Source: Opitutia bacterium
Lineage (GTDB): Bacteria > Verrucomicrobiota > Verrucomicrobiia > Opitutales > T3Sed10-336
Assembly: GCA_050506795.1 (NCBI GenBank)
Contig: JBJHCF010000012.1
Location: forward strand, 47,502 to 98,352
Direction of reading: 5' to 3'
Length of the DNA stretch: 50,851 nt
The notes beneath the pieces are model-generated. The model saw only the letters and a list, made by a program, of their open reading frames with translations, was not told the origin of the DNA and did no database searches. This document shows, piece after piece, positions 13,826-43,457 of the stretch. Within the stretch, counting starts at the first letter, position 1, and each line of letters opens with the position of its first letter. Position numbers and translations under genes: made by a program.

Positions 13826-15778
13826 ATGAGCGGAATCTGCGGAATAGTCCACTGGAACGACGAACCGGCGACCGAAAACGAGGTTCGCCCGATGCTCGAC
13901 GCCGCGCCGCATCGCGGTCCGGACGGAGTATTCTCCCGGGCTGAACGCAATGCGGCCTTCGGGTACCTTTCGCTTGAGATCACTCCAGAATCAAAAGACG
14001 AGGTTCAACCTCTCGTCCACACCCCGACCGGCGTGATGGTGGTCGCGGATCTGCGCCTCGACAATCGCGCCGACCTGATCCGCCGCATCGGCGAGGAAAC
14101 CGTCGAACGCCACCGCAGGGAGCTTTCGGCCCGAGGCCGAACCGCCGGCGAAGGCCCGCCCACCGACGCCGAGCTCGTCCTGATCGCCTATCTTCGCTGG
14201 GAGGCCGAATGCTTCGCCCACCTCCTCGGGGACTTCGCCATCGCCATCTGGGACCCGCGCTCCCGACATCTCCTCCTTGCACGCGACCCCATGGCCATGC
14301 GCGCCCTCTACTACCGCGTCGAACCCAAACGCGCTCTTTTTGCCACCGAAGTCAAACAGATCCTCGCCGTACCCGGGGTGGAGCGAAAAATCAATGATGC
14401 GGCTGTGGCCTCACACTTAAGCATCTCCCATCACACTCTTGACGTTAGCTTTTTCGAGGGCATCGAGCAGGGTCCGGCGGGAAGTTTGACTTTGATCTCC
14501 ACCGCCAAAACGGACACGCGACGTTTTTGGCAATTCAATCCGGAGATGCGAGTCAGGTATCGCGATGAACGGGACTACGCGGAGCACTTTCGCGAGCTTT
14601 TCGCCAATTCCCTGGCATCGCGCCTACGTACCGACAAGCCGGTTGGCCTTTCAATGAGCGGAGGCATGGATTCCGGCAGTATCGCTGCTACGGCTGGTTG
14701 GATGCGCGAACAGGGACGCATTCCCGTTGATCTGGAATTTCGTTGTTACTGCTGGGCTTTTTCAGAACTGGCGCAGTGCGACGAACGGACAAACAGCAGC
14801 CGGATAACCCGCCGCTACCACCTGCCGGTGATAGATATTCCCGGGGATGATGAATGGCCGTTTGTCAGGTACCCCGAAAGCGGTCCGGATCCCGACGAGC
14901 CGTTTTTCGGAGTCTACCAAAGCTTACTCGATAAAACCGCTGCCGCCGCCAGCAAGGACGGCGTCCGCGTCCTGTTCTCCGGTGATCGCGGAGATCTCCT
15001 TATGGGTGGTGGAATAACGGACCTGCCCGCGTTGTTTCTGCGCGGAGAACTCGGAGTTGTTTATCGGGAATTGCGTTACCTGGCATACCCTAGGGAGATG
15101 CCAAGTGTGGCCTACCGGAAAATCGTCAAGCCTTTGATCAAGAATGTCGGCCAGGCATTACTTTCGGATCGCCAACGGTCCGCGCTGAAACGGCTGGTTC
15201 GTGGGCAGGAAAACGCGGAATCGAGATTCAAACGCCGACGACATTTGAATGAGGATTTCATCCGGCGGCACAATACGCTGAACAACATCTATCTCCCGCC
15301 CGAAGCATTAAAAAACCAAACCACTCTCAAACGCTACGAATTCATCTTCGCCCCTGTACACATGAAAGGAATGGTTTGGTCTGACCGAACCAACAATCGA
15401 TTCGGAGTAGCCTTTGCCGATCCGTTCGGAGACCGGCTGCTCGCCGAATACATCCTTTCGATCCCACAGCGGATCGTCAATAGAGTCAGCGATCAGAAAC
15501 GGCTTCTGCGAGCCGCAATGGGGGGAATTATGCCCGCTGACGCCATAAAAGGAGCCGTGAAAGTGTCACCTTCTCCTCTGGCGATGAAAGGATTCCGAAC
15601 GGAAGCAAAAGCCTTGGTTTTGGATCTTCTCACCGAAAGCGAGGTGGTTCGACGCGGGTACGTCAATCCGGCCGGGCTGAAGGATCTCGCCGAAACCTTT
15701 TTTTCGGGACATGACGACCTGACCGACTTATGGGCGGTCCTTTCGCTGGAAACGTGGTTACGGCTGTATTGGCGATGA
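13826..15778 (+). CDS. Asparagine synthetase-like protein, putative lasso cyclase (paralogue 1)
   Basis: MSGICG (Ser in place of the catalytic Cys), HRGPDG, LARDPM, PP-loop SMSGGMDS, SGDRGD; same cluster as the lasso-type precursor. Confidence 0.85.
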   Translation: MSGICGIVHWNDEPATENEVRPMLDAAPHRGPDGVFSRAERNAAFGYLSLEITPESKDEVQPLVHTPTGVMVVADLRLDNRADLIRRIGEETVERHRRELSARGRTAGEGPPTDAELVLIAYLRWEAECFAHLLGDFAIAIWDPRSRHLLLARDPMAMRALYYRVEPKRALFATEVKQILAVPGVERKINDAAVASHLSISHHTLDVSFFEGIEQGPAGSLTLISTAKTDTRRFWQFNPEMRVRYRDERDYAEHFRELFANSLASRLRTDKPVGLSMSGGMDSGSIAATAGWMREQGRIPVDLEFRCYCWAFSELAQCDERTNSSRITRRYHLPVIDIPGDDEWPFVRYPESGPDPDEPFFGVYQSLLDKTAAAASKDGVRVLFSGDRGDLLMGGGITDLPALFLRGELGVVYRELRYLAYPREMPSVAYRKIVKPLIKNVGQALLSDRQRSALKRLVRGQENAESRFKRRRHLNEDFIRRHNTLNNIYLPPEALKNQTTLKRYEFIFAPVHMKGMVWSDRTNNRFGVAFADPFGDRLLAEYILSIPQRIVNRVSDQKRLLRAAMGGIMPADAIKGAVKVSPSPLAMKGFRTEAKALVLDLLTESEVVRRGYVNPAGLKDLAETFFSGHDDLTDLWAVLSLETWLRLYWR

Positions 15779-17685
15779 GTGGCATTTGCGGAATAGTCAA
15801 GACATCGGCCGCGGACGAGCCTTTTCCCGTTTCGGACCTTGAGGCCATGGCTGCCGCAGCTCGGCATCGTGGTCCGGATGGCATCATGCTCGAAGTACTC
15901 AACACCAGTGGCATGGGATACTTGTCGTTTGAGGTCACACCTGAATCGGTAGGTGAGGTGCAGCCCGTGATTTACAAAGCCGCCGGGATTATGGCTGTCG
16001 CTTCTCTGCGCCTCGACAATCGGGCCGAATTGATCGGAGCACTGGGACGGGAGCTTAGGGAACTCGGGAAAGCCGAGGCTCCCCCCACCGACGCCGAATT
16101 GCTCGTCGCCGCGCGTCTGAAATGGCCGGATTCGTTTGTTGAACGGTTGATGGGAGACTTTGCCATTGCCATCTGCGACCCTCGTCAACGCACCCTCCAA
16201 CTCGCCCGCGACCCGATGGGCATACGTCCGCTTTATTTTCATGTGGCGGCTCACCGACTCCTGTTCGCATCCGAGATAAAGCAGATCCTTGCGGTTCCCG
16301 GGGTCAAACGGGAGATAAACGAAAGGTCTGTCGCCGCCCAGCTGTGCGGGTTTCATCCACCGGCCGAGTTCACTTTCTTCCAGGGTATCGACCAAGTCGG
16401 GCCGGGTGAAATATTGACCCTCCTCGGAGACACAGTGACGCGCCGCCGATTCTGGGAAGTTTCGCCGGAACCCGCTCGACCGTTTAGGAGCGCTGAGAGT
16501 CTCCGCGCCGAGTTCCGGACGATCTTTCTTGACGCCGTTAAATGCCGGGTTCGCTGCGCATCGCCCATAGCGATATCACTGAGCGGTGGTCTTGATTCCG
16601 GAAGCATTGCATCTGTTTTCGGTTGGTTGCGGGAAACTGGACGACTCCCGGCGGATTCCCGACTAAACGCCTACAGTTGGGCGTTCGAAGAGCTGGTTGC
16701 CTGCGACGAACGGAAAAACAGCAGCGAAATTGCCGATCGGTATGGAATTCCCATGACCGGCATACCCGGCGATGACGCTTGGCCCTTGGCCGATCTTCAT
16801 CGCAACCGTCCGGATCTGGATGACCCTTATATTTTCTATTATCACGACTTGATCGACCGCCTGTTGGCCGCTGCGAAGCGGGACAACAGCCGAATGCTTC
16901 TGACCGGCGAGCGTGGCGATGCGGTGACCAATCAATGGGTTTACGACTACCCGGGTCTTCTGAAATCGGGGCGTTTATGCGCCCTTTACTCCGAACTATC
17001 GGCTCATGGAAAGTCAATGGAGTTATCGCTGACGCGGATGATCAGGCGCAGTCTCCTAAACCCATTGCTGGGAAATTCAGGTATTCCGAGGAGATACGCC
17101 AGGATGCGAAGGCGTCGTTCCCAGCTGCCGGCCTACGTTCGATCCGATTTTGCCTCGCGCGCCCAGGTATATGATCTTCACGAACGCCGCTATCCCGCCT
17201 CTCCTATCACCAACGAGGCGCGCCGCCTTCGATACGAACTTATCTTTTCATCGACTTCATTTCGGAGGATCTCTCTCATCGAACGCCATCAAGCAGCTCA
17301 TGGACTGGGGTTTGCAGATCCATGGAGCGACCGGAGAATCGCTGAATTCGTCGTATCGATCCCGCAGCATGAGGTACACCGGTTCCTCGATTATAAGCGG
17401 CTTACCCGGCGAGGTCTAAAAGGCATTCTGCCGGAAAGACTTCAGTCGATCACTCGCCTCGAAGCCAACGCCGACCCGGCCTCCCTGTTCGACCGAGGAA
17501 TCTACGACCGCAGCCGTGATACTGTTCGCAGTCTGATTATCGATTCTATCGCCGCCGAACACGGCTTCGTTGATAAGAATATCCTTCGAGATGACTACGA
17601 AGCCGCCCTAAGCGGAAAGCATCCACCCTATGAACTCTGGTGGTTCCTTACGCTCGAGCTTTGGCTGAGAGAACACTGGAGATGA
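15775..17685 (+). CDS. Asparagine synthetase-like protein, putative lasso cyclase (paralogue 2)
   Basis: ATG 15775 overlaps the paralogue 1 stop (ATGA). MSGICG, HRGPDG, SLSGGLDS, TGERGD. Confidence 0.85.
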   Translation: MSGICGIVKTSAADEPFPVSDLEAMAAAARHRGPDGIMLEVLNTSGMGYLSFEVTPESVGEVQPVIYKAAGIMAVASLRLDNRAELIGALGRELRELGKAEAPPTDAELLVAARLKWPDSFVERLMGDFAIAICDPRQRTLQLARDPMGIRPLYFHVAAHRLLFASEIKQILAVPGVKREINERSVAAQLCGFHPPAEFTFFQGIDQVGPGEILTLLGDTVTRRRFWEVSPEPARPFRSAESLRAEFRTIFLDAVKCRVRCASPIAISLSGGLDSGSIASVFGWLRETGRLPADSRLNAYSWAFEELVACDERKNSSEIADRYGIPMTGIPGDDAWPLADLHRNRPDLDDPYIFYYHDLIDRLLAAAKRDNSRMLLTGERGDAVTNQWVYDYPGLLKSGRLCALYSELSAHGKSMELSLTRMIRRSLLNPLLGNSGIPRRYARMRRRRSQLPAYVRSDFASRAQVYDLHERRYPASPITNEARRLRYELIFSSTSFRRISLIERHQAAHGLGFADPWSDRRIAEFVVSIPQHEVHRFLDYKRLTRRGLKGILPERLQSITRLEANADPASLFDRGIYDRSRDTVRSLIIDSIAAEHGFVDKNILRDDYEAALSGKHPPYELWWFLTLELWLREHWR

Positions 17686-17880
17686 TGGTACCAGGGAGTT
17701 GATTTAGGCGAGATAGGCAGATCGTGCTCGCACGATAATGGAAAACCTTATCTTACAATCAGGGCCACCTTATGCGGGAAAACCTTGACCAATGTGGACT
17801 TAAACTGCCAGATTTAGGTCGTGGAGATAAACTATCACCACGACCGTTATTAATATCTGAAGAAAGTTGAGGCTGATCCG

Positions 17881-18027
17881 ATGAAATCTGAAAATCTTAA
17901 ATCCAAAACTTATACTGCTCCTCTCCTCAAGAAATGGGGAACGGTGTCTGACCTGACCCTGACCGGTGGAACCAACCCTGGTGATGATGGAAAAGGCGGC
18001 AGCGTAGGTCACAGCAAAGGCCAATAA
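17881..18027 (+). CDS. Lasso-type RiPP precursor peptide (48 aa; not in the ORF track)
   Basis: Hand translation: MKSENLKSKTYTAPLLKKWGTVSDLTL-TGGTNPGDDGKGGSVGHSKGQ*. Leader motif YxxPxLxxxGxxxxxT; Asp at core positions 8 and 9. Confidence 0.88.
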   Translation: MKSENLKSKTYTAPLLKKWGTVSDLTLTGGTNPGDDGKGGSVGHSKGQ

Positions 18028-18035
18028 GCTCTAAG

Positions 18036-18061
18036 CATTGCCAGCGGGAATGCTGGTAGTG
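18036..18061 (+). terminator. Stem-loop just after the precursor gene (stabiliser/attenuator)
   Basis: CATTGCCAGC-GGGAAT-GCTGGTAGTG, 10-bp stem with two G-U pairs; no U-tract. Confidence 0.4.
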
Positions 18062-18069
18062 ATGTTACG

Positions 18070-19272
18070 GTGCAGGAGCGCATGACCAACTGCATTATTG
18101 CCCGAATAGAAAAGCGATATGGAGGGTTATGCGTTCTGGCCGGAACGCAATCATCTAACGAGGCGCTCGCGGTAATCGCGAGCGCCTTACTGCTTCAAAT
18201 GGCGAGCCGGATCAGCTCGGGCGTTAAACTGGTGATTCGGAACACTGAAACCGAGTCCGTCCTGGCCGCGTTCGGTGAATTCAATGAGACCGATATTTGC
18301 CGATTGAAGGCATTGTCGGCGCAACTCTCCCGTGTCCATCGAAGCGCGAAATACGTTGATTACCGGCAGGCGGAAAGGGACTGCGAAATCCTGGCCGGAA
18401 AACTGAAAGCGCGTTACAGCGAAAGCGAACTGGGCGGTTTCACTGTTTACCCTGTCCCCCGGGGAGGGTGTATTGTGCAAGGGATGCTGAGCTACGCGCT
18501 GGATGTTCGTATTCCGCGGGTCCGTGAAAGCGGCTCGGAATCTTCCACGATTTTGGTCGTTGATGATTGCGCGATCTCGGGCCTTCGTTTGGGAGAGGTT
18601 CTGGCCCGGTTTCCCGGACATAAGATCATCTTTGCCACCCTTTACTCCCATCCCGACCTGAGAGACGCGATATGCAGGCGGGAATCGCAAGTGATCGACT
18701 TCGTCAGCGCCAACGACCTGACGGATCTCGCCCCGGAGCTTTACGGCGACGGGTGTAAAGAATGGAAAACGAACTGGGCCGAACGGTACGGATCGACTGC
18801 TTATTGGATCGGTCAGCCGGAGTACCTCTGCTTTGCCTGGAACGAGCCCGAAAGTGCTTGCTGGAACCCATTTTCCCGAGAAATCGAACCAGGGTGGTTT
18901 CTTGTGCCGCCGGAGCGTTGTTTGAAGCACCGCTCCCGCTCCTGGTTGAATGCGGGCACGGCGCCTTCAGACCTCCAGATTATTCCGGAATTTCCGGGAC
19001 CAATCAGACCGTTGGAGAATGTGCTGTATGCGCAAATGGACGACAACTCGATTGCGATAACATCCGCTCCCAACGAGGACTGTTTTCTTTTGGAGGGTAC
19101 CGCCGCCGACATGTGGACGGCTTTGCTGACCAATGGCTCGAAGAAAGCCGCCTCGGCGGCCCTCGCCAACCTATACGATATTTCCCCCGAGCAACTTGAG
19201 GGCGACCTCGGCAGGTTTGTCGACCAACTCAAATCCCAGGCCTTGATCGCGGATGCATGTACCGCCGGCTGA
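18070..19272 (+). CDS. Phosphoribosyltransferase-like domain fused to a C-terminal PqqD/RRE domain
   Basis: VYPVPRGG and ILVVDDCAISG resemble type I PRTase motifs. C-terminal FLLEGTAADMWTAL...LANLYDISPEQLEGDLGRFVDQLKSQALI is a typical PqqD/RRE pattern. Confidence 0.75.
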   Translation: MQERMTNCIIARIEKRYGGLCVLAGTQSSNEALAVIASALLLQMASRISSGVKLVIRNTETESVLAAFGEFNETDICRLKALSAQLSRVHRSAKYVDYRQAERDCEILAGKLKARYSESELGGFTVYPVPRGGCIVQGMLSYALDVRIPRVRESGSESSTILVVDDCAISGLRLGEVLARFPGHKIIFATLYSHPDLRDAICRRESQVIDFVSANDLTDLAPELYGDGCKEWKTNWAERYGSTAYWIGQPEYLCFAWNEPESACWNPFSREIEPGWFLVPPERCLKHRSRSWLNAGTAPSDLQIIPEFPGPIRPLENVLYAQMDDNSIAITSAPNEDCFLLEGTAADMWTALLTNGSKKAASAALANLYDISPEQLEGDLGRFVDQLKSQALIADACTAG

Positions 19273-19420
19273 AGGCGCTTTGCTATCGATCCGGGAATCC
19301 GGCTTGCGCGAAATATAGCGATTCGCGTGATCGATGATTGAAACCGTGTGCTCGGCGAGAATACCCTTTTGCCGGTTGATCCAAGTCTCGTTAGATGTCC
19401 GACTTTTTGAAAGCACCTAA

Positions 19421-22400
19421 ATGTACGATTCACGTGTTCCGCGAAGTCTTTTCATCTACGGCCTGCTTGCCGTTTTTGTCCTCTCCGGCTTCGCCGGCCT
19501 GATCTACCAGTCCATCTGGTCCCATTACCTCGGCCTGTGGCTGGGCCATGCCGCGTATGCTCAGGCCCTGGTTCTGGCCACTTTCATGGGCGGAATGGGG
19601 TTGGGGGCGGCCCTGGTGGCGCGTTACACCAGCGGCTGGCGCAATCTGGTCCGGAAATACGCTATCGTGGAACTCGCGCTCGGCGTCGCCGGACTTTGCT
19701 TTCACCTGATCTTCGTCAATCTGCACCACCTGCTGCTGGAATCGATCGTTCCCGTCCTGCCGTCGGCCTCCCTGGTCAGTGGTGTAAAATGGGGGGTCGC
19801 CATAGGCCTGATCCTGCCTCAATCGATTCTGTTGGGTATGAGCTTCCCCTTGATGAGCGCGGGCATCATGCGGCGGATTCAAGGCATTGAAGGACGAGTC
19901 CTGGGAAACCTCTATTTTTCCAACAGCATCGGGGCGGCGGCGGGCGCCCTGGCCGCGACGTTTATTCTGGTGCCCGCCGTAGGACTTCCGGGAGCGATTC
20001 AAATCGCGGGCTGCCTCAACCTGCTGGTCGGCGCCGCCGCGTGGGTTTTGAGCCCGAATGAAGCCGGAAACCAGTCCCAGGCCCCACGACAGGTCTCCGA
20101 CTCGGAATCCGTCGCGCGGCCGTCAGCCAAACGATCCCTGCTTTACGTTCTGCTGGCGGGCACGGCGCTCTCCAGCGCCGCTTCCTTCATGTACGAAATC
20201 GGCTGGGTGCGCATGCTCAGCCTCGCCGTGGGAACGACGCTGCACGCTTTCGAACTGATGCTGGCCGCTTTCATTGGAGGCCTGGCTCTTGGCGGTCTCT
20301 GGATCAGAGGTCACGCCGACAAGTTCGGGCGTCCGTTGATCGCCCTCAGTTGGATACAATTATTGATGGGCCTTTGCGCGCTCGGCTCGTTGGCCCTTTA
20401 CAGCGGCGCGTTCAAATGGGTCGGCTACCTCATGGCGGCCCTCGCGGAGACCAACAGCGGTTACCATTTTTACAATGCGGGAACGGCGGTCGCCGCCATC
20501 GGCATCATGCTGCCGGCAGCCTTCTTCGCCGGAGCCACCCTGCCGCTTTTTACCACCATTCTCCTGCGCGCCGGATTCGGGGAGTCCGTGATCGGAAAGG
20601 TTTACGCCTGTAATACCTTCGGGGCGATTTTTGGGGTTTTCGCCGCCGTTCACTTCATGATCCCTCGAATGGGATTGCGCGATGCCATGATCGCCGCGGC
20701 CGGACTCGATATCGCCATCGGCCTGGTCCTGATGGGCTTGTACTCACAGGGGCGGCAACGGGCCCTGCTGGTTCCCGCGGTTGTGGGGGCGAGTCTTTTC
20801 TGCGTCGTGGCAACCGGAATGTGGGTGCAATTCGATCCGCATCGCCTCGCCTCCGGGGTTTTCCGCAGCGGACGGCCTACGCTTGGATCCTCGTATGAAA
20901 TGCTGTACTACCGTGACGGCAAGACCGCCAGTGTCGCGCTTTTTCAGTCCCAGAACGCGGTTCGCTCGATTGCGAACAACGGCAAAGTGGACGCTTCGCT
21001 TTCCTTCGACGAGGAAGCCGGACCGACATTCGATGAATCCACTATGGTCCTCGCCGGCGCCCTGCCGATGGGCCTGCACGCGGACCCCCGAAGGGTTGCG
21101 GTCATAGGCTTCGGCTCCGGTCTGACCACGCAGACCGTCCTGGCGGATCCTCGTGTGGAGAATGTGGATACGATCGAGATCGAGTCCATGATGATCGAAG
21201 CCGCGCGCGGGTTTGGTTATCGCGTGGAGCGAGCTTATGCGGATCCTCGGTCGAACATCGTCATAGATGACGCCAAGACCGTGCTATCCGGCAGCAGGGA
21301 TCGTTACGATATCATCATATCCGAACCCTCAAACCCCTGGATGGCCGGGGTGGGCAATCTCTTCGCCGACGAGTTTTACGACTTTATCGCCAAACGACTC
21401 AACCCGGGCGGCCTTTTCGTCCAATGGCTCCAGTTGTACGAAATCGACGAAGCCCTGGTCGGGTCCATTCTCTCGGCGTTTGTCCCGCATTTCGACGATC
21501 ATCGCGCCTGGCTGGCGAATTCATCGGACCTGCTGATTGTTGGGACCCGAGGCGATCCGCTCCCTGCCCTGGACATCGAACATTTGTTTCGCGACCAGCT
21601 GGGCGTGGAAATGCGGCGCGCGGGTTTGCGCGATCCTGCTCAGATCGTCTTGCGCGAGTTCGCCGACGGCGCATTGCTGCGCGCCATGGCCGCCGCATTA
21701 GGGCAACCGGCGAACTCATATTACCGCCCCGTTCTCACGCTGAACGCCCCCAGGACGCGTTTTCGCCGGTTGAGTGCCGACCGGATCAATGCGCGTTCCG
21801 GAGAGCATGTTATGGTTCTCGAGCTCCTGGGGACCGGAAAACCGCTGCCCGGTGGCGTGGCACCTCCGGAACGCCCGCACTTCCGCGGAGAATACAACAC
21901 CACCATTGCCCGAACACTTCGGGGGGTCCTTTTGGGAGATGGCGATGCCTATGCGTTGTCGAACCGCTTTGATTCGGCCTGGCGTACGGAGCTGCTGCGC
22001 CTTCAATCACAGAATTGCCGGGAATCGGAAGACGCTGGCCGGGTCCCGGTTTGGCTGGATTTGTACGGGCCGTTCGTTTTGGAAACCCTTCCCTTTATCG
22101 ATACCGAGGGCGCCTACTCCCTGTTTGTCGAGCCGGAATGGCATCGGTGTACGGACATGCCGGCACTGGTGCGGACGGCACTCGACTTTACCAGGGATCT
22201 CGCCTTGCGGGACCTGTCGGAGATCCCGGTCTCGGCAGCCCGTTTCCTGGATCGAGCCGCGGAAGATGGAATCGACTCCAACCCTCTTAATGAATTGGCT
22301 TACCTGGCGGCTCAGGCCGCCCTGATTTCCTCAGGCGATCTGACGAATGCGCGTTCATTCAGAAATGATTATCGGGATGCCGCGATATTGAAGGCACAGG

Positions 22401-22462
22401 GCCAATTCCTCCAGGATGTCCTGGGAGAGATTTTGACACCTTCCGGCGATGCTCCCCATTGA
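19421..22462 (+). CDS. Fused multi-pass membrane (MFS-like)/spermidine-synthase-like SAM-binding protein
   Basis: SGFAGLIYQ..W helices (about 13 TM), then VAVIGFGSGLT, TIEIE, DDAK, YDIIISEPSNPW. Confidence 0.85.
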   Translation: MYDSRVPRSLFIYGLLAVFVLSGFAGLIYQSIWSHYLGLWLGHAAYAQALVLATFMGGMGLGAALVARYTSGWRNLVRKYAIVELALGVAGLCFHLIFVNLHHLLLESIVPVLPSASLVSGVKWGVAIGLILPQSILLGMSFPLMSAGIMRRIQGIEGRVLGNLYFSNSIGAAAGALAATFILVPAVGLPGAIQIAGCLNLLVGAAAWVLSPNEAGNQSQAPRQVSDSESVARPSAKRSLLYVLLAGTALSSAASFMYEIGWVRMLSLAVGTTLHAFELMLAAFIGGLALGGLWIRGHADKFGRPLIALSWIQLLMGLCALGSLALYSGAFKWVGYLMAALAETNSGYHFYNAGTAVAAIGIMLPAAFFAGATLPLFTTILLRAGFGESVIGKVYACNTFGAIFGVFAAVHFMIPRMGLRDAMIAAAGLDIAIGLVLMGLYSQGRQRALLVPAVVGASLFCVVATGMWVQFDPHRLASGVFRSGRPTLGSSYEMLYYRDGKTASVALFQSQNAVRSIANNGKVDASLSFDEEAGPTFDESTMVLAGALPMGLHADPRRVAVIGFGSGLTTQTVLADPRVENVDTIEIESMMIEAARGFGYRVERAYADPRSNIVIDDAKTVLSGSRDRYDIIISEPSNPWMAGVGNLFADEFYDFIAKRLNPGGLFVQWLQLYEIDEALVGSILSAFVPHFDDHRAWLANSSDLLIVGTRGDPLPALDIEHLFRDQLGVEMRRAGLRDPAQIVLREFADGALLRAMAAALGQPANSYYRPVLTLNAPRTRFRRLSADRINARSGEHVMVLELLGTGKPLPGGVAPPERPHFRGEYNTTIARTLRGVLLGDGDAYALSNRFDSAWRTELLRLQSQNCRESEDAGRVPVWLDLYGPFVLETLPFIDTEGAYSLFVEPEWHRCTDMPALVRTALDFTRDLALRDLSEIPVSAARFLDRAAEDGIDSNPLNELAYLAAQAALISSGDLTNARSFRNDYRDAAILKAQGQFLQDVLGEILTPSGDAPH

Positions 22463-22530
22463 CGGACTTTCACCAACGCTGCCTGCCGATCCCTGGTGGA
22501 AAGCAAAGAAACTAAAACGGGCCATTGAAC

Positions 22531-23469
22531 ATGACCTATAGTCTTTTTGGATTTAACGTTCACACTGATTTCCGATTCACGATCGACCTCCCTCGCGCGA
22601 ACGGCAATCCCGACCTTACCTTTTCGTGCGTTTCCCAAAACACTCCCCGTACCCTGGATACAGGAAATCACGTGTTTTCCAGCAGGGCGACCAACCACTT
22701 CGGTGAGCCCGAGGCGATGCTTTTCAGCAATTCCGTTGCTGATGTCATGCGTTTTCCCCGGATCGCGGACTTCGTGATTCGACCTGGATCAATTGTGTGT
22801 GAGCTCCTTGACCCCGAATGTGCCTACCTGGTGCAGATCTGTCTGCTGGGGCACGTTTTCGGCTACTACCTGGAGCGTAGCGGCTATTCTTCCATTCACG
22901 GCGCTTCGGTGGCAGTCGGAGAGTCGGCGGTATTGCTGGTCGGGCACCGGAGAGCCGGCAAGAGCACGATGGCGGGATCGCTCCTCAACGGCGGCTTGCC
23001 GCTCCTGGCCGACGACATTTCGGCGCTTGAAGTACGGAATACCAGCATCCTTTGCCGCCCGGCGTATCCCCAGATCAAACTTACCCCGGGGCAGGCGTGT
23101 CTTTTCGGCCTTGATTCCGCCAACTACGCAAAGGTTCATCCCGCCTTCGAGAAACTCAACGTTCCGATGTCCGACCTCGGCGAGTTCCATCCGACGCCAC
23201 TTCCCGCCCGCTGTGTCTACCTGATCGAACGCGTGCCGGACGAATCCACACAGGTAGAGATTGTCCCTGTTCCGCCGGGTGAAGCACTAATCGAGTTATT
23301 AAGACATACCTTTATCACCGATATCATCGAAGCCACCGATCTCCAGGCACCCAGGATGAAACGCCTGGCCCAGATCGCAAAAATCCTCCCGGTGAAACGC
23401 CTGCGGTACCCGTCCGGGTACGAAAACCTCCCGTTGGTCCATGAGGCGATTCAGGCGGACACGCGGTGA
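22531..23469 (+). CDS. HPr-kinase-like P-loop protein (lasso/paeninodin-cluster type kinase)
   Basis: IHGASV, Walker A GHRRAGKST, LLADD. Confidence 0.8.
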   Translation: MTYSLFGFNVHTDFRFTIDLPRANGNPDLTFSCVSQNTPRTLDTGNHVFSSRATNHFGEPEAMLFSNSVADVMRFPRIADFVIRPGSIVCELLDPECAYLVQICLLGHVFGYYLERSGYSSIHGASVAVGESAVLLVGHRRAGKSTMAGSLLNGGLPLLADDISALEVRNTSILCRPAYPQIKLTPGQACLFGLDSANYAKVHPAFEKLNVPMSDLGEFHPTPLPARCVYLIERVPDESTQVEIVPVPPGEALIELLRHTFITDIIEATDLQAPRMKRLAQIAKILPVKRLRYPSGYENLPLVHEAIQADTR

Positions 23470-27177: not shown

Positions 27178-29058
27178 ATGCTCAGTAACCTAAAAAAGAT
27201 CAACGAACTTTTGACGCGGAAGCAGCGATTGGCCGGCCTGTGCCTGCTTGGGGTGATGCTTCTGATCGGCTTGATGCAGGTGGCGTCGGTGACTTCGGTC
27301 CTGCCCTTCATGGCGGTCGTCGGGAATCCGGAGGTAATCGAGACGAATCGCTGGATTAACATGGTGTACGAGGGGTTGGGGTTCACCTCGAATTTGAGTT
27401 TTCTCATCTTCTTGGGGCTGGTGATGTTGACCTCGATTCTGTGCCTTAATGCGGTGTCGATTTTCAGTGTCTGGCTCAACGCCCGGTTCACTTGGGCGCT
27501 GAACGTCCATATTTCGAGGAGCCTCCTCGCCAAGTATTTGTCGCAGCCTTACCTTTTCTTCGTCAGCCGCAACAGTTCGGAATTCTCCCACGCTGTGCTT
27601 CAGGAGACGCAATATTTCACCAACGGCTACGTAACTCCCCTGCTGCAGGTGATCGCCAAGGGCGTCACCATCATCAGCCTGTTTACTCTCGTTTTTTTGG
27701 TGGACCCTTTGGTCGCCACGTTAGCCATTTTTGTTTTCGGCGGCCTGTATCTGGCGATTTATTCCTACTTTAGAAAAAAGCTTGGGCAAATCGGGCATCA
27801 GCGTGTTGAAGCGAACCGAAAGCGGTACAAGTCTGTGAGCGAAGCATTCGGCTCGGTGAAAGAGAATAAGATCCTCCAACGGGAAGGGCATTTTGTGCGA
27901 TCTTATGATACCCCATCCCGCTTGATGGGGAAGCTGGAAGTGACTCTGCAGTTGATTGGCAGGATTCCTCACCTTGTGCTGGAAACCCTGGCGTTTGGAG
28001 GAATGATCGCTTTGGTGTTGTATTTCCTGGTCAGTAGGGGAGGGGTCGGTGAGATTTTACCGATACTGAGTCTGTACGCCTTCGCGAGTTATCGCATCAT
28101 GCCCGCTCTCCAGACGATATTCAAAACTTTCACCCAGCTTCGTTCCTCTCAAGCTGTTTTGGATTTGATTTATCGCGATATGACCGCTCCTTTGGGCGCC
28201 GCACTCGCGATAGACCCTGAAGAGATCCCATATGACGAACTGGACAAGAAGACTGTGGTGGTGCCCGAATCTCAGCGTGATTTATTGAAACCGGAGTCGC
28301 GAATCCTGCCGTTTCAAAGCACCATAGAACTACGTGATTTGACCTTCAATTACCCCGAAGCGCCTCGTCCCGCGTTGAAAAACGTCAGCCTTTCGATACC
28401 ATTCAACCGCTCGGTTGCTTTTTGCGGTCCGACCGGATCCGGAAAAACCACCGCGGTCGATATCATTCTGGGACTGCTGGAGCCTAGTGCCGGGGCGTTA
28501 CTTGTAGACGGTGTTAGAATCACCCCCGAAAACCGGCGCCAATGGCAAAGGAATCTTGGGTATGTGCCACAGAGCATCTATCTTTCGGACAGTACGATTA
28601 CGGAGAATATCGCTTTTGGGATTCCGAGGAAAGAGATAGATCATGCCGCTGTTGAGCAAGCGGCACGAATCGCCAACATCGCGGACTTTATCGAAAGCGA
28701 ATTACCACTCGGTTATGAAACGCTTGTAGGTGAACGCGGTGTGCGCTTGAGCGGCGGTCAACGTCAAAGAATCGGCATTGCCCGCGCCCTATACCATGAT
28801 CCCTCGGTCCTGGTCCTCGACGAAGCCACCAGCGCTTTGGACGGCGCGACCGAGGAGGCGGTCATGCAAGCCGTCAAACAGGTTGCCGAAGCCAAGACCG
28901 TCATCCTGATCGCCCACCGCCTATCGACCGTCAAGGATTGCGACACAATCTTCCTCCTGGATCACGGTCGTCTGGTAATGACCGGAACCTACGAAGATCT
29001 CATGAAAAACAGCAAATCCTTCCAAAGAATGGCCCGCCAACCCACCCCCGTCGGATAA
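27178..29058 (+). CDS. ABC transporter permease/ATPase (PglK/HetA-like, glycan-associated)
   Basis: TM domain, GPTGSGKT, LSGGQRQRIGIARALY, LDEATSALD, IAHRLST. Confidence 0.92.
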   Translation: MLSNLKKINELLTRKQRLAGLCLLGVMLLIGLMQVASVTSVLPFMAVVGNPEVIETNRWINMVYEGLGFTSNLSFLIFLGLVMLTSILCLNAVSIFSVWLNARFTWALNVHISRSLLAKYLSQPYLFFVSRNSSEFSHAVLQETQYFTNGYVTPLLQVIAKGVTIISLFTLVFLVDPLVATLAIFVFGGLYLAIYSYFRKKLGQIGHQRVEANRKRYKSVSEAFGSVKENKILQREGHFVRSYDTPSRLMGKLEVTLQLIGRIPHLVLETLAFGGMIALVLYFLVSRGGVGEILPILSLYAFASYRIMPALQTIFKTFTQLRSSQAVLDLIYRDMTAPLGAALAIDPEEIPYDELDKKTVVVPESQRDLLKPESRILPFQSTIELRDLTFNYPEAPRPALKNVSLSIPFNRSVAFCGPTGSGKTTAVDIILGLLEPSAGALLVDGVRITPENRRQWQRNLGYVPQSIYLSDSTITENIAFGIPRKEIDHAAVEQAARIANIADFIESELPLGYETLVGERGVRLSGGQRQRIGIARALYHDPSVLVLDEATSALDGATEEAVMQAVKQVAEAKTVILIAHRLSTVKDCDTIFLLDHGRLVMTGTYEDLMKNSKSFQRMARQPTPVG

Positions 29059-30519: not shown

Positions 30520-30625
30520 CGAATTTCGGATGGCGGACACTAATGGCGGATGGAGAATGGCGGAGGACTAATGGCGGATGGCGGATGGCGGATGGTGAAT
30601 AGCGGAGGGTGAATGATTGGATGGT
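30505..30625. repeat. Heptamer array (GGCGGAT/GGCGAAT), purine orientation
   Basis: GAATGGCGGATAGCGAATTTCGGATGGCGGA...GGCGGATGGCGGATGGCGGATGGTGAAT. Confidence 0.85.
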
Positions 30626-30976
30626 GAATACAGGGATTTTGAAGAAATGCAGGTGTGGCAGGATGCTCAGGATCTTGCTGTTCAGGTTTATCAGGATTTT
30701 TCGAGAGTCCGGGATTTCTCGTTCACCGATCAAATCAAGCGGGCAGTCGTTTCAATCTCAAACAATATTGCTGAGGGTTCCGAGCGGACCACATCGGGGG
30801 AATTTGCACGATTTCTGGATATCGCAAAAGGGTCGAGTGGTGAAGTGCGCAGCATGTACCGCCTTGCCGAGCGCCTCGGTCTTCTTTCTGATGGTCTTTT
30901 TGAGGAACGTTGCGCCCAATGCAAATCGATATCCCGCCAACTCGGTGGCTTCGCCAAACACCTAAGAAAAAAATAA
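30617..30976 (+). CDS. Four helix bundle protein (23S rRNA-IVP/Avd-like family)
   Basis: FEEMQVWQ, DQIKRAVVSISNNIAEG.ER, FLDIAKGSSGEVRS; TTG start. Confidence 0.92.
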   Translation: MDGEYRDFEEMQVWQDAQDLAVQVYQDFSRVRDFSFTDQIKRAVVSISNNIAEGSERTTSGEFARFLDIAKGSSGEVRSMYRLAERLGLLSDGLFEERCAQCKSISRQLGGFAKHLRKK

Positions 30977-32059: not shown

Positions 32060-34087
32060 ATGAAGAAGTTTACAATCGGAATTTGCTGTATCGGCAGTGG
32101 TGTTGGTCAGTCGGTAATCAATTCTTGCCGCCTTTCCCGCTTGCCTATCAAGACCTTGGGACTGGGAACAAACCCTATGGCATATGGTTTGTATGAATGC
32201 GATGATTACGCCTTTACCAGAAGCTTTTATGATGAAGGCTATCTTGACGAGCTACTTGACCTTTGTGCGGAACGAAATGTGGATCTGTTGATTCCCGGCC
32301 ACGACGATGAAGCGCACCTGTTTGCCAGGAACAAAGAAAGAATCGAATCTGCTGGTGTGAAAGTAATCGCGGCCGGGGCGGAACTGCTTGCCCTTTGCCG
32401 GGACAAAGAACGTATGAGTAACGAACTAAACCGCGATGCTCCCTTGTTCGTGAGAAGTTTCGGGAAGGACGCGTTCTTTGATGCCTGGGCTAGACGAGAG
32501 GTTGAGTTGCCAGTGATCGCGAAGCCAAGAGGAGGTTTTGCCTCCAGAGGAATCAAGATTATTCTTTCGGAAGACGATTTTCGGGAGATTGGGGCCGATT
32601 ATATCGTACAGGAAATTGCCGTTCCGCATGAGGACGATCCCCAACATCTCGAGTATCTCGATAAGTTGAGGAAAGGCATAAATCCCCAAATTGCGGAAAT
32701 TTCAATTCAGTTGGTAGCCCGTCAGGACGGTAGTCTTATGGGGCGAATGGCTTCATATAATAAGCTGAGTAATGGTATCCCGATTGAGATTTTGCCGTAT
32801 GATCGGGAGGAGATATGGGAGGAAATTGATAGGATCCTGCCTAAGTTAGTCCAATGTGGTCTGGCTGGGCCATTTAACCTTCAGGGAAGGTTTACCGAAA
32901 AAGGTCTGAAACTATTTGAGCTGAATGCGAGATTTACCGGAATTACCGGCCTCCGCGCGTTAATGGGATTTAACGAGGTTGAAGCCTGCCTCAGGCATTG
33001 GCTAATGAATGATGATTCATGTCAGCTTGAAATCAATTCATCTAAGGCAGGCATTAGGCAAACTGCGGATAAAGTCATTGTTATTGAACGAAATGAAAAA
33101 GTCCGTAACACCGTAGTCACTCTTAATGGAGGTGAAAACAAGCGAAAAAAGACCATACTGTTAACCGGATCAACCGGGGTGATTGGGCGGCAGCTTCTGT
33201 CAAAGCTTTTGCGGACTAGGACGCACAGGATTTGGCTGCTGAATAGGGACAAGGAAAAGTCTCTGGCTGAATTCGGTGATAATTGTGACCGACATTTTGA
33301 TTGGCAGGATTTCGAGAATGGCGAAATTTCATTTGGAAATATCGACTGCATTTGTCATCTGGCGTTTGCCCGACCAAATTGGGGAAATTTGGAGGTAACT
33401 CGTAGCCTTGAATCGACCTTTTCTCTTTTCAGCAGCGCCGTGGAATCCGGCGTCAATGAGATTATCAATGTTTCGTCTCAAAGTGTTTATGGAGATTCAA
33501 CGTTTCCGCCTTTAGATGAAGATTGTCCCGTCTGTCCGGCCACCTTCTATGGTCAGGCGAAGTACGCGGTGGAACTGTTTCTTAAGACCGCATGTACGGA
33601 TCCTTCGCTTAAATTCACGTCGATGCGATTGGCTACCGTGACAGGTTCTGATCCACGGTTACTAAATTATGAAGCAATCTATAAATTAGTATATAATGCC
33701 GCTAGATTCGGTAAGATCACGATTAGAGGTGGGGATCAGCTCATGGATCGAATATATGTCTCTGATGTGACTGATGCGTTGGTCAAAGTGATCGATTCCG
33801 ATAGTTCTAAATGGAGGACTGTCTATAATCTTGGTGCTAATAACATCCGGCCGATCAGAGAAGTGTCTAATATTATTGCCAGTGTGGTGAATGAGGCCGC
33901 GAAAAAGTCATTGGTGGATGTATCGTTCAGTGAGTCCGGCAACGAAAGATCGTATGGCCTAAACTCCGATCGATTTCATCAGGACTTTTGTTGGAAGCCG
34001 CGCTATGGATACAGAGAAATGGTGGTAGCGATTCTTTCATCAATTGAGCGGGATATGTCTGGCGTCTCTAAGCAGAAAATAAAGTGA
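32060..34087 (+). CDS. Fusion of an ATP-grasp domain and an NAD-dependent epimerase/dehydratase
   Basis: N-half: LIPGHDDE, CRDK, AKPRGGFASRG, FELNARFTG. C-half: LLTGSTGVIG, VSSQSVYG, YGQAK. Confidence 0.8.
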   Translation: MKKFTIGICCIGSGVGQSVINSCRLSRLPIKTLGLGTNPMAYGLYECDDYAFTRSFYDEGYLDELLDLCAERNVDLLIPGHDDEAHLFARNKERIESAGVKVIAAGAELLALCRDKERMSNELNRDAPLFVRSFGKDAFFDAWARREVELPVIAKPRGGFASRGIKIILSEDDFREIGADYIVQEIAVPHEDDPQHLEYLDKLRKGINPQIAEISIQLVARQDGSLMGRMASYNKLSNGIPIEILPYDREEIWEEIDRILPKLVQCGLAGPFNLQGRFTEKGLKLFELNARFTGITGLRALMGFNEVEACLRHWLMNDDSCQLEINSSKAGIRQTADKVIVIERNEKVRNTVVTLNGGENKRKKTILLTGSTGVIGRQLLSKLLRTRTHRIWLLNRDKEKSLAEFGDNCDRHFDWQDFENGEISFGNIDCICHLAFARPNWGNLEVTRSLESTFSLFSSAVESGVNEIINVSSQSVYGDSTFPPLDEDCPVCPATFYGQAKYAVELFLKTACTDPSLKFTSMRLATVTGSDPRLLNYEAIYKLVYNAARFGKITIRGGDQLMDRIYVSDVTDALVKVIDSDSSKWRTVYNLGANNIRPIREVSNIIASVVNEAAKKSLVDVSFSESGNERSYGLNSDRFHQDFCWKPRYGYREMVVAILSSIERDMSGVSKQKIK

Positions 34088-34150
34088 AATCCTTCGTTGC
34101 TGTGCGGTTCTGATTAATCGAGTATTTGCTAATTGAAAAAGTATGTTTTA

Positions 34151-35026
34151 ATGAGTAAATCACAAAAAATTAAGGAGCATGTTTTCGATGTCGCATACAA
34201 TGAAACCATTGATTTAAGAAATCAGTCGAATCACCCAAGTGCTTTCGTATATTCTGAGATATTTAAATCGGCTTTACTCGATGCGAAGGTTGGGCACGGA
34301 AGAATACAGCCCGGTTACCCATTGGGGAAGGACGGAATGGCTCCTATGCAGATTGCTGCTGAATCGGCTTTGAGAAGCAGAGAGGCAAAGATCGATAGAA
34401 TAATTGATGTTTTATCCGAACATTATAGGTTTGTGCAGCCAAAAAATGCGGCAGAATGGCTTGGGATGCCGGTTGATCACGGTCTAAGCGAATACCCTGC
34501 ATGGGCCGGTGTCTATCCATGGCGTGCTAGAACCATCGATTCGTTCAGAAGGGCTCATGAAAATGAAACAAATCGTGTAAACAAGGACTTAGGTATCTGT
34601 TGCGAAATTGATCAGGGGTGGTCGCTGTGTGGTCCAACGGATAAAGAAAAGACTATTTTGGAGTCCAATAGGGTAATGGAGCTCCTCTTGAGGATGCAGG
34701 AGGAGGGATATTGCAGGACGAATGAGCCGGATGGTGATATCAGGGCGACAGCACTTGTGAATGAGGAAGGTGAGTGGAGATGGATTGTTACGGCAGGCGG
34801 TAATCATAGGGCACAGATTGCGGCAGCGTTGGGGTACGAGGAACTCGTTATAAATGTGAATCTTGTAATTTTTAGGTCTGACGCTAAGTATTGGCCCCAT
34901 GTGACCGATGGTCTTTACACTGAAAGAGAGGCCCTTTCGGTTTTCGACAACTATTTTGAGGGGAATCCGCCACCCGTCACGGCTGAATGGTTAAGGCATA
35001 TCCCTATGATCAAAAACGGCCGTTAG
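34151..35026 (+). CDS. Hypothetical protein with a possible ParB/Srx-like motif
   Basis: Long ORF in the operon; AGGNHRAQIAAALGY. Start 34151 or 34133. Confidence 0.6.
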   Translation: MSKSQKIKEHVFDVAYNETIDLRNQSNHPSAFVYSEIFKSALLDAKVGHGRIQPGYPLGKDGMAPMQIAAESALRSREAKIDRIIDVLSEHYRFVQPKNAAEWLGMPVDHGLSEYPAWAGVYPWRARTIDSFRRAHENETNRVNKDLGICCEIDQGWSLCGPTDKEKTILESNRVMELLLRMQEEGYCRTNEPDGDIRATALVNEEGEWRWIVTAGGNHRAQIAAALGYEELVINVNLVIFRSDAKYWPHVTDGLYTEREALSVFDNYFEGNPPPVTAEWLRHIPMIKNGR

Positions 35027-35055
35027 ATTATTGTTTCGGAAGTTCTTCGTATTCT

Positions 35056-36231
35056 ATGAACGAGATTCCTGTTACCGAACCAAACCTGCCTCCGATTGAA
35101 GAGTATTTCGAGCTTCTTCGAGAAGTTTGGTCGCGAAAGTGGCTGACGAATCAGGGACCGTTGGTTCGTCAACTGGAAGAAGGGCTCCGGGAGCACCATG
35201 GTCTCGGGAGGTCGGTCCACTGTGTGGCCAATGCGGGCCTTGGTTTGCAGATAGTATTGAAGGCGCTGGGAGTAAAGGGGGAGGTGGTGACGACACCTTT
35301 CTCCTATGTGGCAACGACTTCCTGCCCGATTTGGGAAGGATGTCGGGTGCGATTTTCAGATGTTGAACCGGAGTTGCTGACAATTGATCCGGACGCTGTT
35401 GAAGCTGCGATCGGTCCGCATACCGAGGCGATCCTGGCGACCCATGTGTATGGAAATCCTTGTGATGTCGAGGCATTAAGGGTGATCGGGGATAAGTACG
35501 GGATCGCGATTATTTACGACGCCGCTCATGCCTTTGGGGTGAAGTATAAAGGTAAGAGCTTGCTGGAGTGGGGGGACGCGTCGGTTGTCAGCACCCACGC
35601 CACCAAGGTCTTCAATACGGTGGAAGGTGGGTTTGTTGTTTCTTCCGACCCCGCTGTTTCCGAGAAGATTGAGTGGCTTCGCCGGTTCGGGCATAAAGGG
35701 AAGGACGACTTTCATGGCGCCGGGATCAACGCGAAGATGAGCGAATTTCACGCGGCGATGGGGCTCTGCAACCTAAGACACATTGAAGAAGTACTCGCAC
35801 GACGGAGGGGCGTTGTGAATACCTACGATTCCGCATTTTTCGGCAGCCGAACCGTCGTGGGTTCCGGCAATGAACGGGAATGCGAAGCCCGGAGTTCCTC
35901 GGAGGTGATATCTTTTGCGTTCAGGTTACGTCCCGAAACCGATTGGAATTGCGCCTATTATCCGGTGAAGTTTAGCAATGTGGGCACACTCCTTCAGGTA
36001 ATGAACGCCCTTGAAGCACAGGAGGTGTATCCGCGGCGGTATTTTTACCCCTCTTTAAATCGGGTGCAATCTTTGGGTGGGTTTCCCGTGATGCCGGTGT
36101 CAGAGGAGGTCGCTGAAAGAATCCTCTGTTTGCCGTTGTCGGCCGAAATTTCTAACAATGATCAGAAACGAATCATAATGACTGTTCTGGAGGAGCTTCA
36201 AAAGTCTTCTGCGAAACAGGAAAGCTATTGA
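35056..36231 (+). CDS. DegT/DnrJ/EryC1/StrS PLP aminotransferase (VioA-like)
   Basis: LTNQGP, THVYGNPCD, YDAAHAFG, STHATKVFNTVEGG, GINAKMSE, RRYFYP. Confidence 0.92.
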   Translation: MNEIPVTEPNLPPIEEYFELLREVWSRKWLTNQGPLVRQLEEGLREHHGLGRSVHCVANAGLGLQIVLKALGVKGEVVTTPFSYVATTSCPIWEGCRVRFSDVEPELLTIDPDAVEAAIGPHTEAILATHVYGNPCDVEALRVIGDKYGIAIIYDAAHAFGVKYKGKSLLEWGDASVVSTHATKVFNTVEGGFVVSSDPAVSEKIEWLRRFGHKGKDDFHGAGINAKMSEFHAAMGLCNLRHIEEVLARRRGVVNTYDSAFFGSRTVVGSGNERECEARSSSEVISFAFRLRPETDWNCAYYPVKFSNVGTLLQVMNALEAQEVYPRRYFYPSLNRVQSLGGFPVMPVSEEVAERILCLPLSAEISNNDQKRIIMTVLEELQKSSAKQESY

Positions 36232-37376: not shown

Positions 37377-37515
37377 TTTCGGATTCCGGATTCGTGATTT
37401 CGGATAGCGAATTGCGAATTGCGGATGGCGGAGGGCGGATTGATGATTTCGGATAGCGAATTGCGGATGGCGGAGGGCGAATGGCGGATTGCGGATGGCG
37501 AAAAGCGGATGGCTG
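37357..37515. repeat. Heptamer array, purine orientation
   Basis: GATTACGGATTCGTGATTTCGGATTCCGGATTCGTGATTTCGGATAGCGAATTGCGAATTGCGGATGGCGGA; overlaps the upstream stop codon. Confidence 0.85.
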
Positions 37516-37521
37516 TAAACG

Positions 37522-39557: not shown

Positions 39558-39572
39558 GATTATGTATTTATC

Positions 39573-40814: not shown

Positions 40815-40827
40815 TTCCCGCCGGACT

Positions 40828-40891
40828 TGTGGGGTTTGGAGCGTGGAGCATGGGGCGAGGGGCGTGGAGCGTGGGGCATGGGGCGAGGGGC
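40828..40891. repeat. G-rich heptamer array (CGTGGAG/CATGGGG/CGAGGGG)
   Basis: Nine consecutive 7-mers; the reverse-complement family lies at 44260-44323. Confidence 0.85.
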
Positions 40892-40924
40892 TGGCAAAAA
40901 TTTAAACTTCAAACGAATCCCCCC

Positions 40925-41248
40925 TATCAATCCCTCCACCATTAGTCCTCCACCATCCGCCATTCGCCATTCGCTATTTGTGATCCGCAATCCGAAATCA
41001 TCAATCCGCCATTCGCAATACGCTATTAGTCTTCCACCATCCGCTATTTGTAATCCGAAATCACGAATCCGGAATCCGTAATCATCAATCCGCCATCCGC
41101 CATTCGCTATCCGCAATCAATAATCCGTAATCATCAATCCGCCATTCGCCCTCCGTTCTCCGCCATTCGCACTCCGCCATCCGCTATTCGCGATTCGCTA
41201 TCCGTAATCCGAAATCAAGAATCCGCAATCCGTAATCCGCAATCCACC
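40925..41248. repeat. Long heptamer array (ATCCGCC/ATTCGCC/ATCCGTA), pyrimidine orientation
   Basis: About 320 nt of 7-nt periodicity running up to the next ATG. Confidence 0.9.
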
Positions 41249-43435: not shown

Positions 43436-43457
43436 CAAAATCCCCGAAATTTCCATA

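Follow-up and report, generated by a model that had tools for sequence, protein, structure and literature searches.

The DNA analysed here, referred to as the window, is a stretch of 50,851 nucleotides from an Opitutia bacterium (GenBank assembly GCA_050506795.1, contig JBJHCF010000012.1, positions 47,502 to 98,352). Between positions 13,826 and 23,469 it contains a gene cluster for a peptide made by the ribosome and modified after translation (RiPP), of the lasso type. A first-pass annotation made from the sequence had described six co-oriented genes at this site, and all six open reading frames (ORFs) are present. They encode two asparagine-synthetase-like paralogues (C1 and C2), a small precursor peptide (A), a phosphoribosyltransferase (PRTase) fused to a PqqD-like RiPP recognition element (RRE), hereafter PRT-RRE, a fusion of a major facilitator superfamily (MFS) protein with a spermidine synthase, and a kinase resembling HPr kinase:

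13826..15778, + strand: C1, a putative lasso cyclase of the alpha subtype and probable Thr1-Asp9 macrolactam synthase (PF00733 and GATase_7; NF033535)
15775..17685, + strand: C2, a putative cyclase paralogue of the beta subtype, 41% identical to C1; putative second amide-forming enzyme or obligate partner
17881..18027, + strand: precursor A, 48 aa, with a YxxP leader and a predicted 21-aa core (NF033521)
18082..19272, + strand: PRT-RRE, 396/400 aa (PqqD domain, type I PRTase fold), with an alternative in-frame GTG start at 18070
19421..22462, + strand: fused MFS/spermidine-synthase-like protein, 1013 aa (NF037959, 79.6 bits, above the cut-off of 40)
22525..23469, + strand: HPr-kinase-like peptide kinase with a His-Lys-Asp-Asp motif (PF07475 and TIGR04352, both weak matches)

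The first-pass annotation had found no gene for the leader peptidase B2 and had suggested an undescribed lasso-derived class with different chemistry. Different chemistry remains likely, in the form of tailoring by the PRTase and possibly a second amide bond, but the cluster is a variant of lasso biosynthesis and not a peptidase-free class. The account considered likely is a kinase-tailored lasso pathway whose genes are dispersed in this lineage, in which the stand-alone RRE (B1) and B2 would act in trans, PRT-RRE would tailor the peptide and a second amide might be formed.

Leader peptidase and partner genes outside the window

The first-pass annotation was right that no B2 lies in the window, as the PF13471 profile matched none of the 42 window ORFs scanned. 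A six-frame search of the whole genome (designated G000, with the window on contig C12 and C4, C8, C36 and C44 as other contigs) gave a single PF13471 match above the cut-off, on C4 (E 2.8e-23). This B2 is an ORF of 144 aa that scores 95.8 bits against NF033537 (cut-off 33), has intact Cys and His motifs, and is 93% identical to an orphan B2 in the same-genus genome G706, with a ratio of nonsynonymous to synonymous substitution rates (dN/dS) of 0.11. A B2 elsewhere in the genome had been named in the first-pass annotation itself as evidence against its proposal, and on the peptidase that proposal is overturned. Similarly, the statement that the only RRE is a fused one holds for the window but not for the genome, where C44 carries a stand-alone RRE next to genes for an ATP-binding cassette (ABC) exporter, another leader peptide of the lasso type and another kinase. 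In addition, C36 carries a nucleotidyltransferase gene (NTP_transf_5).

Forty related genomes were checked for orthologues of the cyclases, and three were positive (G706, G711 and G714). The genome G714, of the same family and 97% complete, has an intact cluster in the order RRE-B2-ABC-C1-C2-A-PRT/RRE-kinase, together with a convergent nucleotidyltransferase gene. The best matches of these genes in G000 were the ABC exporter (66%) and RRE (71%) of C44, the B2 of C4 (47%), the nucleotidyltransferase of C36 (41%) and the kinase of C12 (51%). Reciprocally, the best matches outside the genus for the orphan B2 and RRE of G000 were those of G714, among the loci compared. C1, C2, the precursor, PRT-RRE and the kinase have stayed in the window, while C44 carries the stand-alone RRE (B1) together with the orthologous ABC exporter, C4 carries B2 and C36 the nucleotidyltransferase. 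In the same-genus genome G707 (92% complete) a B2 orthologue at L122:1450-1890 is without the catalytic Cys and His, and no cyclase and no RRE were found in this fragmented assembly; such decay is what would be expected if B2 is retained for the lasso pathway, as a single case in a fragmented genome.

A survey of homologous loci pointed in the same direction. In total 93 PRT-RRE loci were gathered (one set being the best 80 of 152), of which 82 remained after collapse at 90% identity, and these were annotated with local profiles. B2 was present in 26 of the 82 loci overall (the contigs of most loci being short), in 18 of the 26 with 5 kb upstream, and in 12 of the 15 flanked by 6 kb on either side; the B2 of L014 and L015 is part of an adjoining lasso cluster. 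Of 12 other genomes with a PRT-RRE locus, 9 have a B2 above the cut-off somewhere in the genome. Several observations weigh against a trans-acting B1 and B2. Three of the 15 well-flanked loci (L050, L066 and L118) have no B2, and no above-cut-off B2 was found in three of the 12 genomes (G002, G652 and G711). The genome G711, which is 96% complete and has tandem cyclases, is also without orthologues of the RRE, ABC and nucleotidyltransferase genes; its contig of 9.2 kb stops 557 bases upstream of C1 and has an IS1634 element between C2 and A, so the absences may reflect a gap, decay or real independence. Furthermore, the C44 RRE has a different precursor and kinase as its neighbours and may serve only these.

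The lack of a B2 in the window and in G711, G652 and G002 favours a B2-independent class, with host proteases or new chemistry within the six genes taking off the leader. Lasso formation without B proteins has precedents in pseudomycoidin (PMC6993621) and triculamin (PMC12070363), as given in the available text of these papers, and a missing B2 alone would therefore not be new. Such a class is nevertheless highly improbable here, in view of the intact and conserved B2 in G000, its decay in G707, where no cyclase was found, and the canonical leader with Thr at position -2. A protease hidden in the N-terminal domain of PRT-RRE was also considered and rejected; this domain is unlikely to be catalytic because no column is conserved at 90% or more among 40 sequences.

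Dispersal could also mean that a rearrangement broke the cluster and that the organism now makes no product. The genes are spread over four contigs, a foreign gene lies between PRT-RRE and the kinase, an integrated island lies directly upstream of B2, and an insertion sequence interrupts the cluster of G711. Against this, all frames are open, dN/dS is 0.10-0.28 for B2, C1, C2, PRT-RRE and the kinase (several dS values being near saturation), and G706 likewise keeps the same dispersed gene layout. A decaying remnant is accordingly given very little probability.

Some features of the other contigs were recorded separately. The cassette on C44 (L010:7862-11795) is without a cyclase and consists of the ABC exporter, the stand-alone RRE, the second precursor and its own HPr-like kinase, with polysaccharide export genes nearby. 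Its precursor has a near-identical lasso-type leader, a C-terminal Ser and no Asp or Glu at core positions 7-9, and by analogy with the LPPs described in the available sections of PMC13381572 the cassette may make a linear phosphopeptide, with B1 and B2 common to it and the window precursor. The island on C4 (G000:C4:48790-80912; L128, L009) is integrated at a tRNA-Ser gene, with a 28-bp direct repeat of the 3' end of that gene about 32 kb away; it carries heavy-metal efflux genes (a resistance-nodulation-division transporter and a P-type ATPase) and is absent from the equivalent site in G706. On C8 (L011:8830-11552) a separate RiPP-like locus encodes a fusion of a tubulin-tyrosine-ligase-like ATP-grasp enzyme with a PqqD/RRE domain (783 aa), and directly upstream of it is an ORF of 117 aa ending in a long Ala-Glu/Gly-Glu repeat.

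The PRTase-RRE fusion, the precursor and the kinase

Homologues of PRT-RRE numbered 110 in one search and 422 representatives at 50% identity (E <= 1e-30) in another. The kinase is directly 3' of PRT-RRE in 51 of 68 loci and a precursor directly 5' in 39 of 62, while 34 of 38 loci include a cyclase. Cyclase, precursor, PRT-RRE and kinase form a set co-conserved across phyla, as the first-pass annotation had anticipated, but most of the well-flanked loci also contain B2. The family is patchy: it was found in 5 of 401 genomes from the phylum to which G001 belongs, and a full-length PRT-RRE was found in none of 300 other genomes sampled from the phylum of the window (there was one RRE-only match). 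The relatives of the window that carry it are G706, G711 and G714.

The predicted structure of PRT-RRE (mean predicted local distance difference test score, pLDDT, 94) has three parts, an N-terminal domain (residues ~1-88), a type I PRTase (~88-290) and an RRE like that of lasso B1 proteins (~305-391), which bears out the PRTase-like/PqqD fusion of the first-pass annotation. The PRTase part had XGPRTs as its best Foldseek matches (E 1.6e-5); 43 matches had E <= 0.001, and those listed were PRTases or PRTase-like. A VIA structure comparison matched HGXPRT 4z1o (Z 12.7, root-mean-square deviation 2.4, 121 residues aligned) and also TfuB1/TbiB1. The C-terminal RRE is closest to lasso B1 proteins (profile match to TbiB1, E 5.6e-15). 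A phmmer search of PRT-RRE against PDB sequences gave no match, and a PRT-RRE profile matched RREs and, weakly, PRTases there. The core fold, the RGG loop and the Asp-Asp loop that binds phosphoribosyl pyrophosphate (PRPP), present here as Asp161-Asp162..Gly167, are those of the type I purine PRTases XGPRT and HGXPRT. In contrast to these enzymes, to which it is only ~16-25% identical, PRT-RRE has the additional N-terminal domain and the C-terminal RRE, and its acceptor is presumably a peptide where theirs is a nucleobase. Across 68 homologues, whose mean column identity is 40%, there is no variation at Arg127-Gly128-Gly129, Asp161-Asp162, Gly167, Trp242, Gly244, Trp253 and Glu255.

A predicted complex of PRT-RRE with the precursor scored 0.74 against 0.02 for the best control. 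Of 157 solved complexes 116 attain the mark set for this score, as do 2 of 215 mismatched pairs. Separate runs agreed in no fewer than 51% of contacts, and the partner's pLDDT was 55 or more. In the model, leader residues 8-26 rest on the RRE and the N-terminal domain. Because PRT-RRE binds the leader in this model, it would act before leader removal. Many loci have a stand-alone B1 gene in addition to PRT-RRE, and for this reason the RRE of the fusion is not just a B1. Some findings do not favour a peptide-modifying enzyme. The core is left unplaced in the complex model, the score may reflect likeness only, since RRE-leader complexes have already been solved, and the PRTase fold also matches the non-catalytic regulators PyrR (Z 10.7) and PurR (Z 7.8).

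The regulators leave room for an ordinary phosphorylated lasso peptide, processed in trans, in which the PRTase is a non-catalytic scaffold or nucleotide sensor and the cyclases are either redundant or a heterodimer that makes one ring. This is considered quite unlikely, as the RGG, Asp-Asp and Trp/Glu residues are invariant at so low a mean column identity, and as separate B1 genes accompany PRT-RRE in many loci.

Precursor A scores 19.2 bits against the lasso leader family NF033521 (cut-off 19), in agreement with the small lasso-type precursor reported at first, and has both the YxxP motif and the Thr at -2 of lasso precursors. Cleavage after Thr(-2)-x, that is after Leu27, defines the predicted core TGGTNPGDDGKGGSVGHSKGQ, which is 21 aa long and has Thr1, Asp8, Asp9, Lys11, Gly13-Ser14 and a C-terminal Gln. 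The neutral monoisotopic mass calculated for this core is 1911.867 when linear, 1893.857 with one ring and 1875.846 with two. In 22 hand-picked similar precursors Tyr11, Pro14, Thr26, Asp36, Gly40 and Ser41 are invariant. Among 57 family cores collected by pattern, Asp9 is found in 43 and Asp or Glu at positions 7-9 in 54; the tail contains Gly-Ser in 45 and Ser or Thr in all 57, and a C-terminal Ser occurs in 5.

The HPr-kinase-like assignment of the gene at 22525-23469 stands, and its His, Lys, Asp and Asp are invariant in 57 family kinases, that of the window included. According to the available text of PMC9266682, kinases of the PadeK type need a C-terminal Ser on the substrate. The core of the window ends in Gln, and because a C-terminal Ser is absent the target of this kinase must be an internal residue or a sugar. 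The conserved Ser of the tail appears to be the best candidate for the kinase and the PRTase alike.

Three further observations were made among the homologous loci. In Litchfieldella (L014:1268-9246 and L015:2117-9454) a PRT-RRE cluster adjoins a lasso cluster whose tandem precursors number three to four, and one set of B1, B2, nucleotidyltransferase and ABC genes is common to both. A PRT-RRE subfamily (L022, L023, L025, L027 and L041) has cores with Asn1 and two conserved Cys residues, a sequence pattern that suggests a disulfide-bridged lasso. Finally, in L118, L030 and L078 no lasso gene was detected in the vicinity of PRT-RRE, the flanks in L118 being ~9 kb on each side.

The pair of cyclases

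The start of C2 overlaps the stop of C1 (ATGA), and the two proteins are 41% identical over 661 columns. Both contain the Asn_synthase (PF00733) and GATase_7 domains of the asparagine-synthetase-like paralogues first reported, and the best NCBIfam family for both is the lasso cyclase NF033535. Their scores against it (315 bits for C1 and 319 bits for C2) are below the cut-off of 525, which counts against the lasso account, while the gene context agrees with a lasso cyclase. The adenylation motifs (ATP-loop, Asp and Lys) are kept in both, and the possibility that one of them is a pseudo-enzyme was rejected on this ground. Glutamine-dependent amidotransferases of the AsnB type, whose nucleophile is an N-terminal Cys (seen in the 7ylz alignment), were likewise rejected, as Ser replaces this Cys in C1 and C2; their scores against TIGR01536 were 187 and 182 bits (cut-off 267). 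Orthologues of C2 are found in G706, G711 and G714, and its dN/dS against G706 is ~0.1, with dS near saturation.

The duplication noted in the first-pass annotation recurs as tandem cyclase pairs in nine other loci (L012, L019, L059, L080, L092, L112, L113, L116 and L117). The automatic count was 12 of 82, from which L014, L015 and L064 were excluded because in these the second cyclase is part of another cluster that has precursors of its own. B2 lies within six of the nine loci, so that the duplicated cyclase does not replace the peptidase, a further point against a B2-independent class. In L012 (11769-13584) the beta-type cyclase of the pair is split by a frameshift, either an assembly error or a pseudogene.

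Every tandem pair comprises an alpha and a beta cyclase, and catalytic motifs are kept in both. When the orientation of seven pairs was set from one motif, 17 columns separated the two subtypes, the best of 64 orientations (the next gave 8), and columns trained on the family of the window sorted six of six independent pairs alike. C1 has 7 of 7 alpha-diagnostic residues and C2 has 1 of 7. The alpha subtype also occurs in the single-cyclase loci L038 and L049, and a beta copy alone occurs in L021 and L082. Other results weaken the division. The reverse-trained test of subtype is weak (7 columns), and C2 has just 3 of 6 beta residues. Whole-protein trees (a quick IQ-TREE run and FastTree) do not form clean alpha and beta clades and place C1 and C2 of the window with each other's relatives. 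They give no clear sign of a single ancient alpha/beta duplication, and the genes may have duplicated repeatedly, with either convergence or gene conversion. This, together with the 70% identity of the L117 pair and the single cyclase of many PRT-RRE clusters, agrees with redundant or heterodimeric cyclases in an ordinary phosphorylated lasso pathway; the constant composition of one alpha and one beta per pair, with catalytic motifs in both, does not.

All ten tandem pairs, counting that of the window, go with one short type of core, which has Thr1, Asp9, Lys11 and Gly-Ser and ends in Ser-x-Gly-x, although the loci are kin and not independent. The L117 precursor, identified after this rule was fixed, fits it. 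No tandem pair was found in 18 better-flanked loci with other cores, including L046 (Thr1, no Lys11, long tail). No pair was seen in ten short-core loci, in every one of which the contig breaks off on one side within ~5 kb. The constant Lys and the constant length of the C-terminus would suit a second isopeptide bond by analogy with gelatinamin A and lariocidin B. In the available text of PMC12070363 and PMC13352647, these peptides have a second macrolactam from Lys to the C-terminus, the same product as that proposed for C2. Their second ring is ascribed there to a peptidase of the clostripain family acting as a transpeptidase, whereas the candidate here is a second, putatively ATP-dependent cyclase paralogue. 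Tentatively, the leading role for C2 is the formation of a second amide, most simply from Lys11 to the C-terminus. An obligate C1-C2 heterodimer that makes one ring is possible, with a smaller probability, and plain redundancy of the two enzymes is unlikely. C-terminal amidation is another possible role.

Setting, related systems and proposed pathway

Polysaccharide genes flank the cluster on both sides, with an epimerase upstream and Wza-like export genes, rml genes and a flippase downstream, so the surface-polysaccharide setting first described is borne out. The membrane-SAM-domain fusion of that description is also present, as the MFS/spermidine-synthase gene, but it does not belong to the conserved unit. 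Only one of the 82 non-redundant homologous loci (that of same-genus G706) carries it, and it is therefore a genus-level insertion; a role as pathway member or amine donor was rejected for the same reason. Downstream is a further transporter:

27178..29058, + strand: MsbA/PglK-like ABC exporter, paralogue of the cluster ABC, 41% identical to the in-cluster ABC of G714

The G714 in-cluster ABC is 66% identical to the C44 copy against 41% to this protein, which possibly exports the peptide or is part of the polysaccharide locus. Positions 32060-44516 of the polysaccharide locus encode two ATP-grasp proteins (one an epimerase fusion), a PF15617 TIM-barrel C-C lyase, phosphonopyruvate-decarboxylase-like and adenylosuccinate-lyase-like enzymes and a PF04199 protein, a gene set that suggests an unusual sugar substituent. 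Small genes for a four-helix-bundle protein (23S_rRNA_IVP) and a GxxExxY protein are scattered within this locus (30617-30976 and 42768-43148), and GC content drops to ~40% from 46 kb of the window onward. A scan for promoters and terminators gave numbers at chance level (6 against 5.6, and 15 against 18.5).

Lasso clusters with a kinase and an NTP transferase in polysaccharide loci have already been described (PMC13381572, available sections). The paeninodin/pseudomycoidin-type systems (PadeK, ThcoK and PsmK; the nucleotidyltransferase PsmN), as given in the available parts of PMC9266682 and PMC13381572, share with the present system the split B1 and B2, the asparagine-synthetase-like cyclase, the HPr-like kinase with His-Lys-Asp-Asp, the NTP_transf_5 and ABC genes found in relatives of the window, and the polysaccharide-locus setting. 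The window cluster differs from them in the absence of a C-terminal Ser, in the PRTase-RRE fusion and two cyclase subtypes, and in having its B1, B2, ABC and nucleotidyltransferase genes on other contigs. Triculamin-type clusters are likewise without a local peptidase gene. However, according to the available text of PMC12070363, triculamin lacks an RRE and a B2 and has a follower and an N-truncated cyclase, whereas the system of the window has a leader, cyclases of full length, RREs and, at a distance, a B2, and so does not fit that type.

For PRTase-RRE fusions an RRE model is already on record, namely RREFam048 'Phosphoribosyl_Transferase_RRE' of RRE-Finder, in the available supplement of PMC12710340; the fusion is unmentioned in the main texts of PMC12710340 and PMC7470986. 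Judged by the model name and its table row there, PRT-RRE of the window likely belongs to RREFam048. A literature search, with most subscription papers outside it, found no account of phosphoribosylated RiPPs, of tailoring by a PRTase in a lasso pathway or of such a pathway with two cyclases, and 'phosphoribos' and 'ribosyl' do not occur in the available text of reviews covering lasso peptides. The PRTase-RRE, with its presumed tailoring role, and the alpha/beta pair of cyclases are genuine and conserved and, within the literature searched, uncharacterised.

O-linked phosphoribosyl transfer has a precedent in BtrL of butirosin biosynthesis. In the pathway proposed here, PRT-RRE would dock on the leader and transfer 5-phosphoribose from PRPP to the core, the acceptor most likely being the conserved internal Ser14 or a phosphate placed there by the kinase. 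The kinase would phosphorylate an internal Ser/Thr or the sugar. B1 and B2, supplied in trans, would then cut after Leu27, C1 would close the nine-residue macrolactam between Thr1 and Asp9, and C2 would adenylate a second carboxylate to give a second amide, most simply from Lys11 to the C-terminus. Gene content, orthology, conservation, fold and co-occurrence were established directly, and we infer the chemistry of the pathway. The most likely product is a lasso peptide processed in trans and bearing both a phosphate and a phosphoribosyl group; a second amide bond is possible. The complete form of this proposal joins phosphoribosylation of the peptide by a leader-docking PRTase (with the kinase and nucleotidyltransferase perhaps leading to a nucleotide-ribose adduct), an ATP-dependent ring from Lys11 to the C-terminus made by C2, and a trans pathway spread over four genome sites; that all of it is correct is rather unlikely.

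Overall, the analysis bears on genome mining as well as on RiPP chemistry. A lasso cluster 'lacking B2' can keep a conserved peptidase on another contig, which calls for caution in genome mining. Litchfieldella (L014/L015) provides a cultured source of a PRT-RRE cluster. If the PRTase acts on the peptide, phosphoribosylation would be added to the chemistry of RiPPs, with a leader-guided enzyme that attaches sugar phosphates to peptides. Should C2 prove to form a second amide, the role of lasso cyclases would extend beyond the N-terminal ring, and doubly cyclised lassos could be formed without a transpeptidase.

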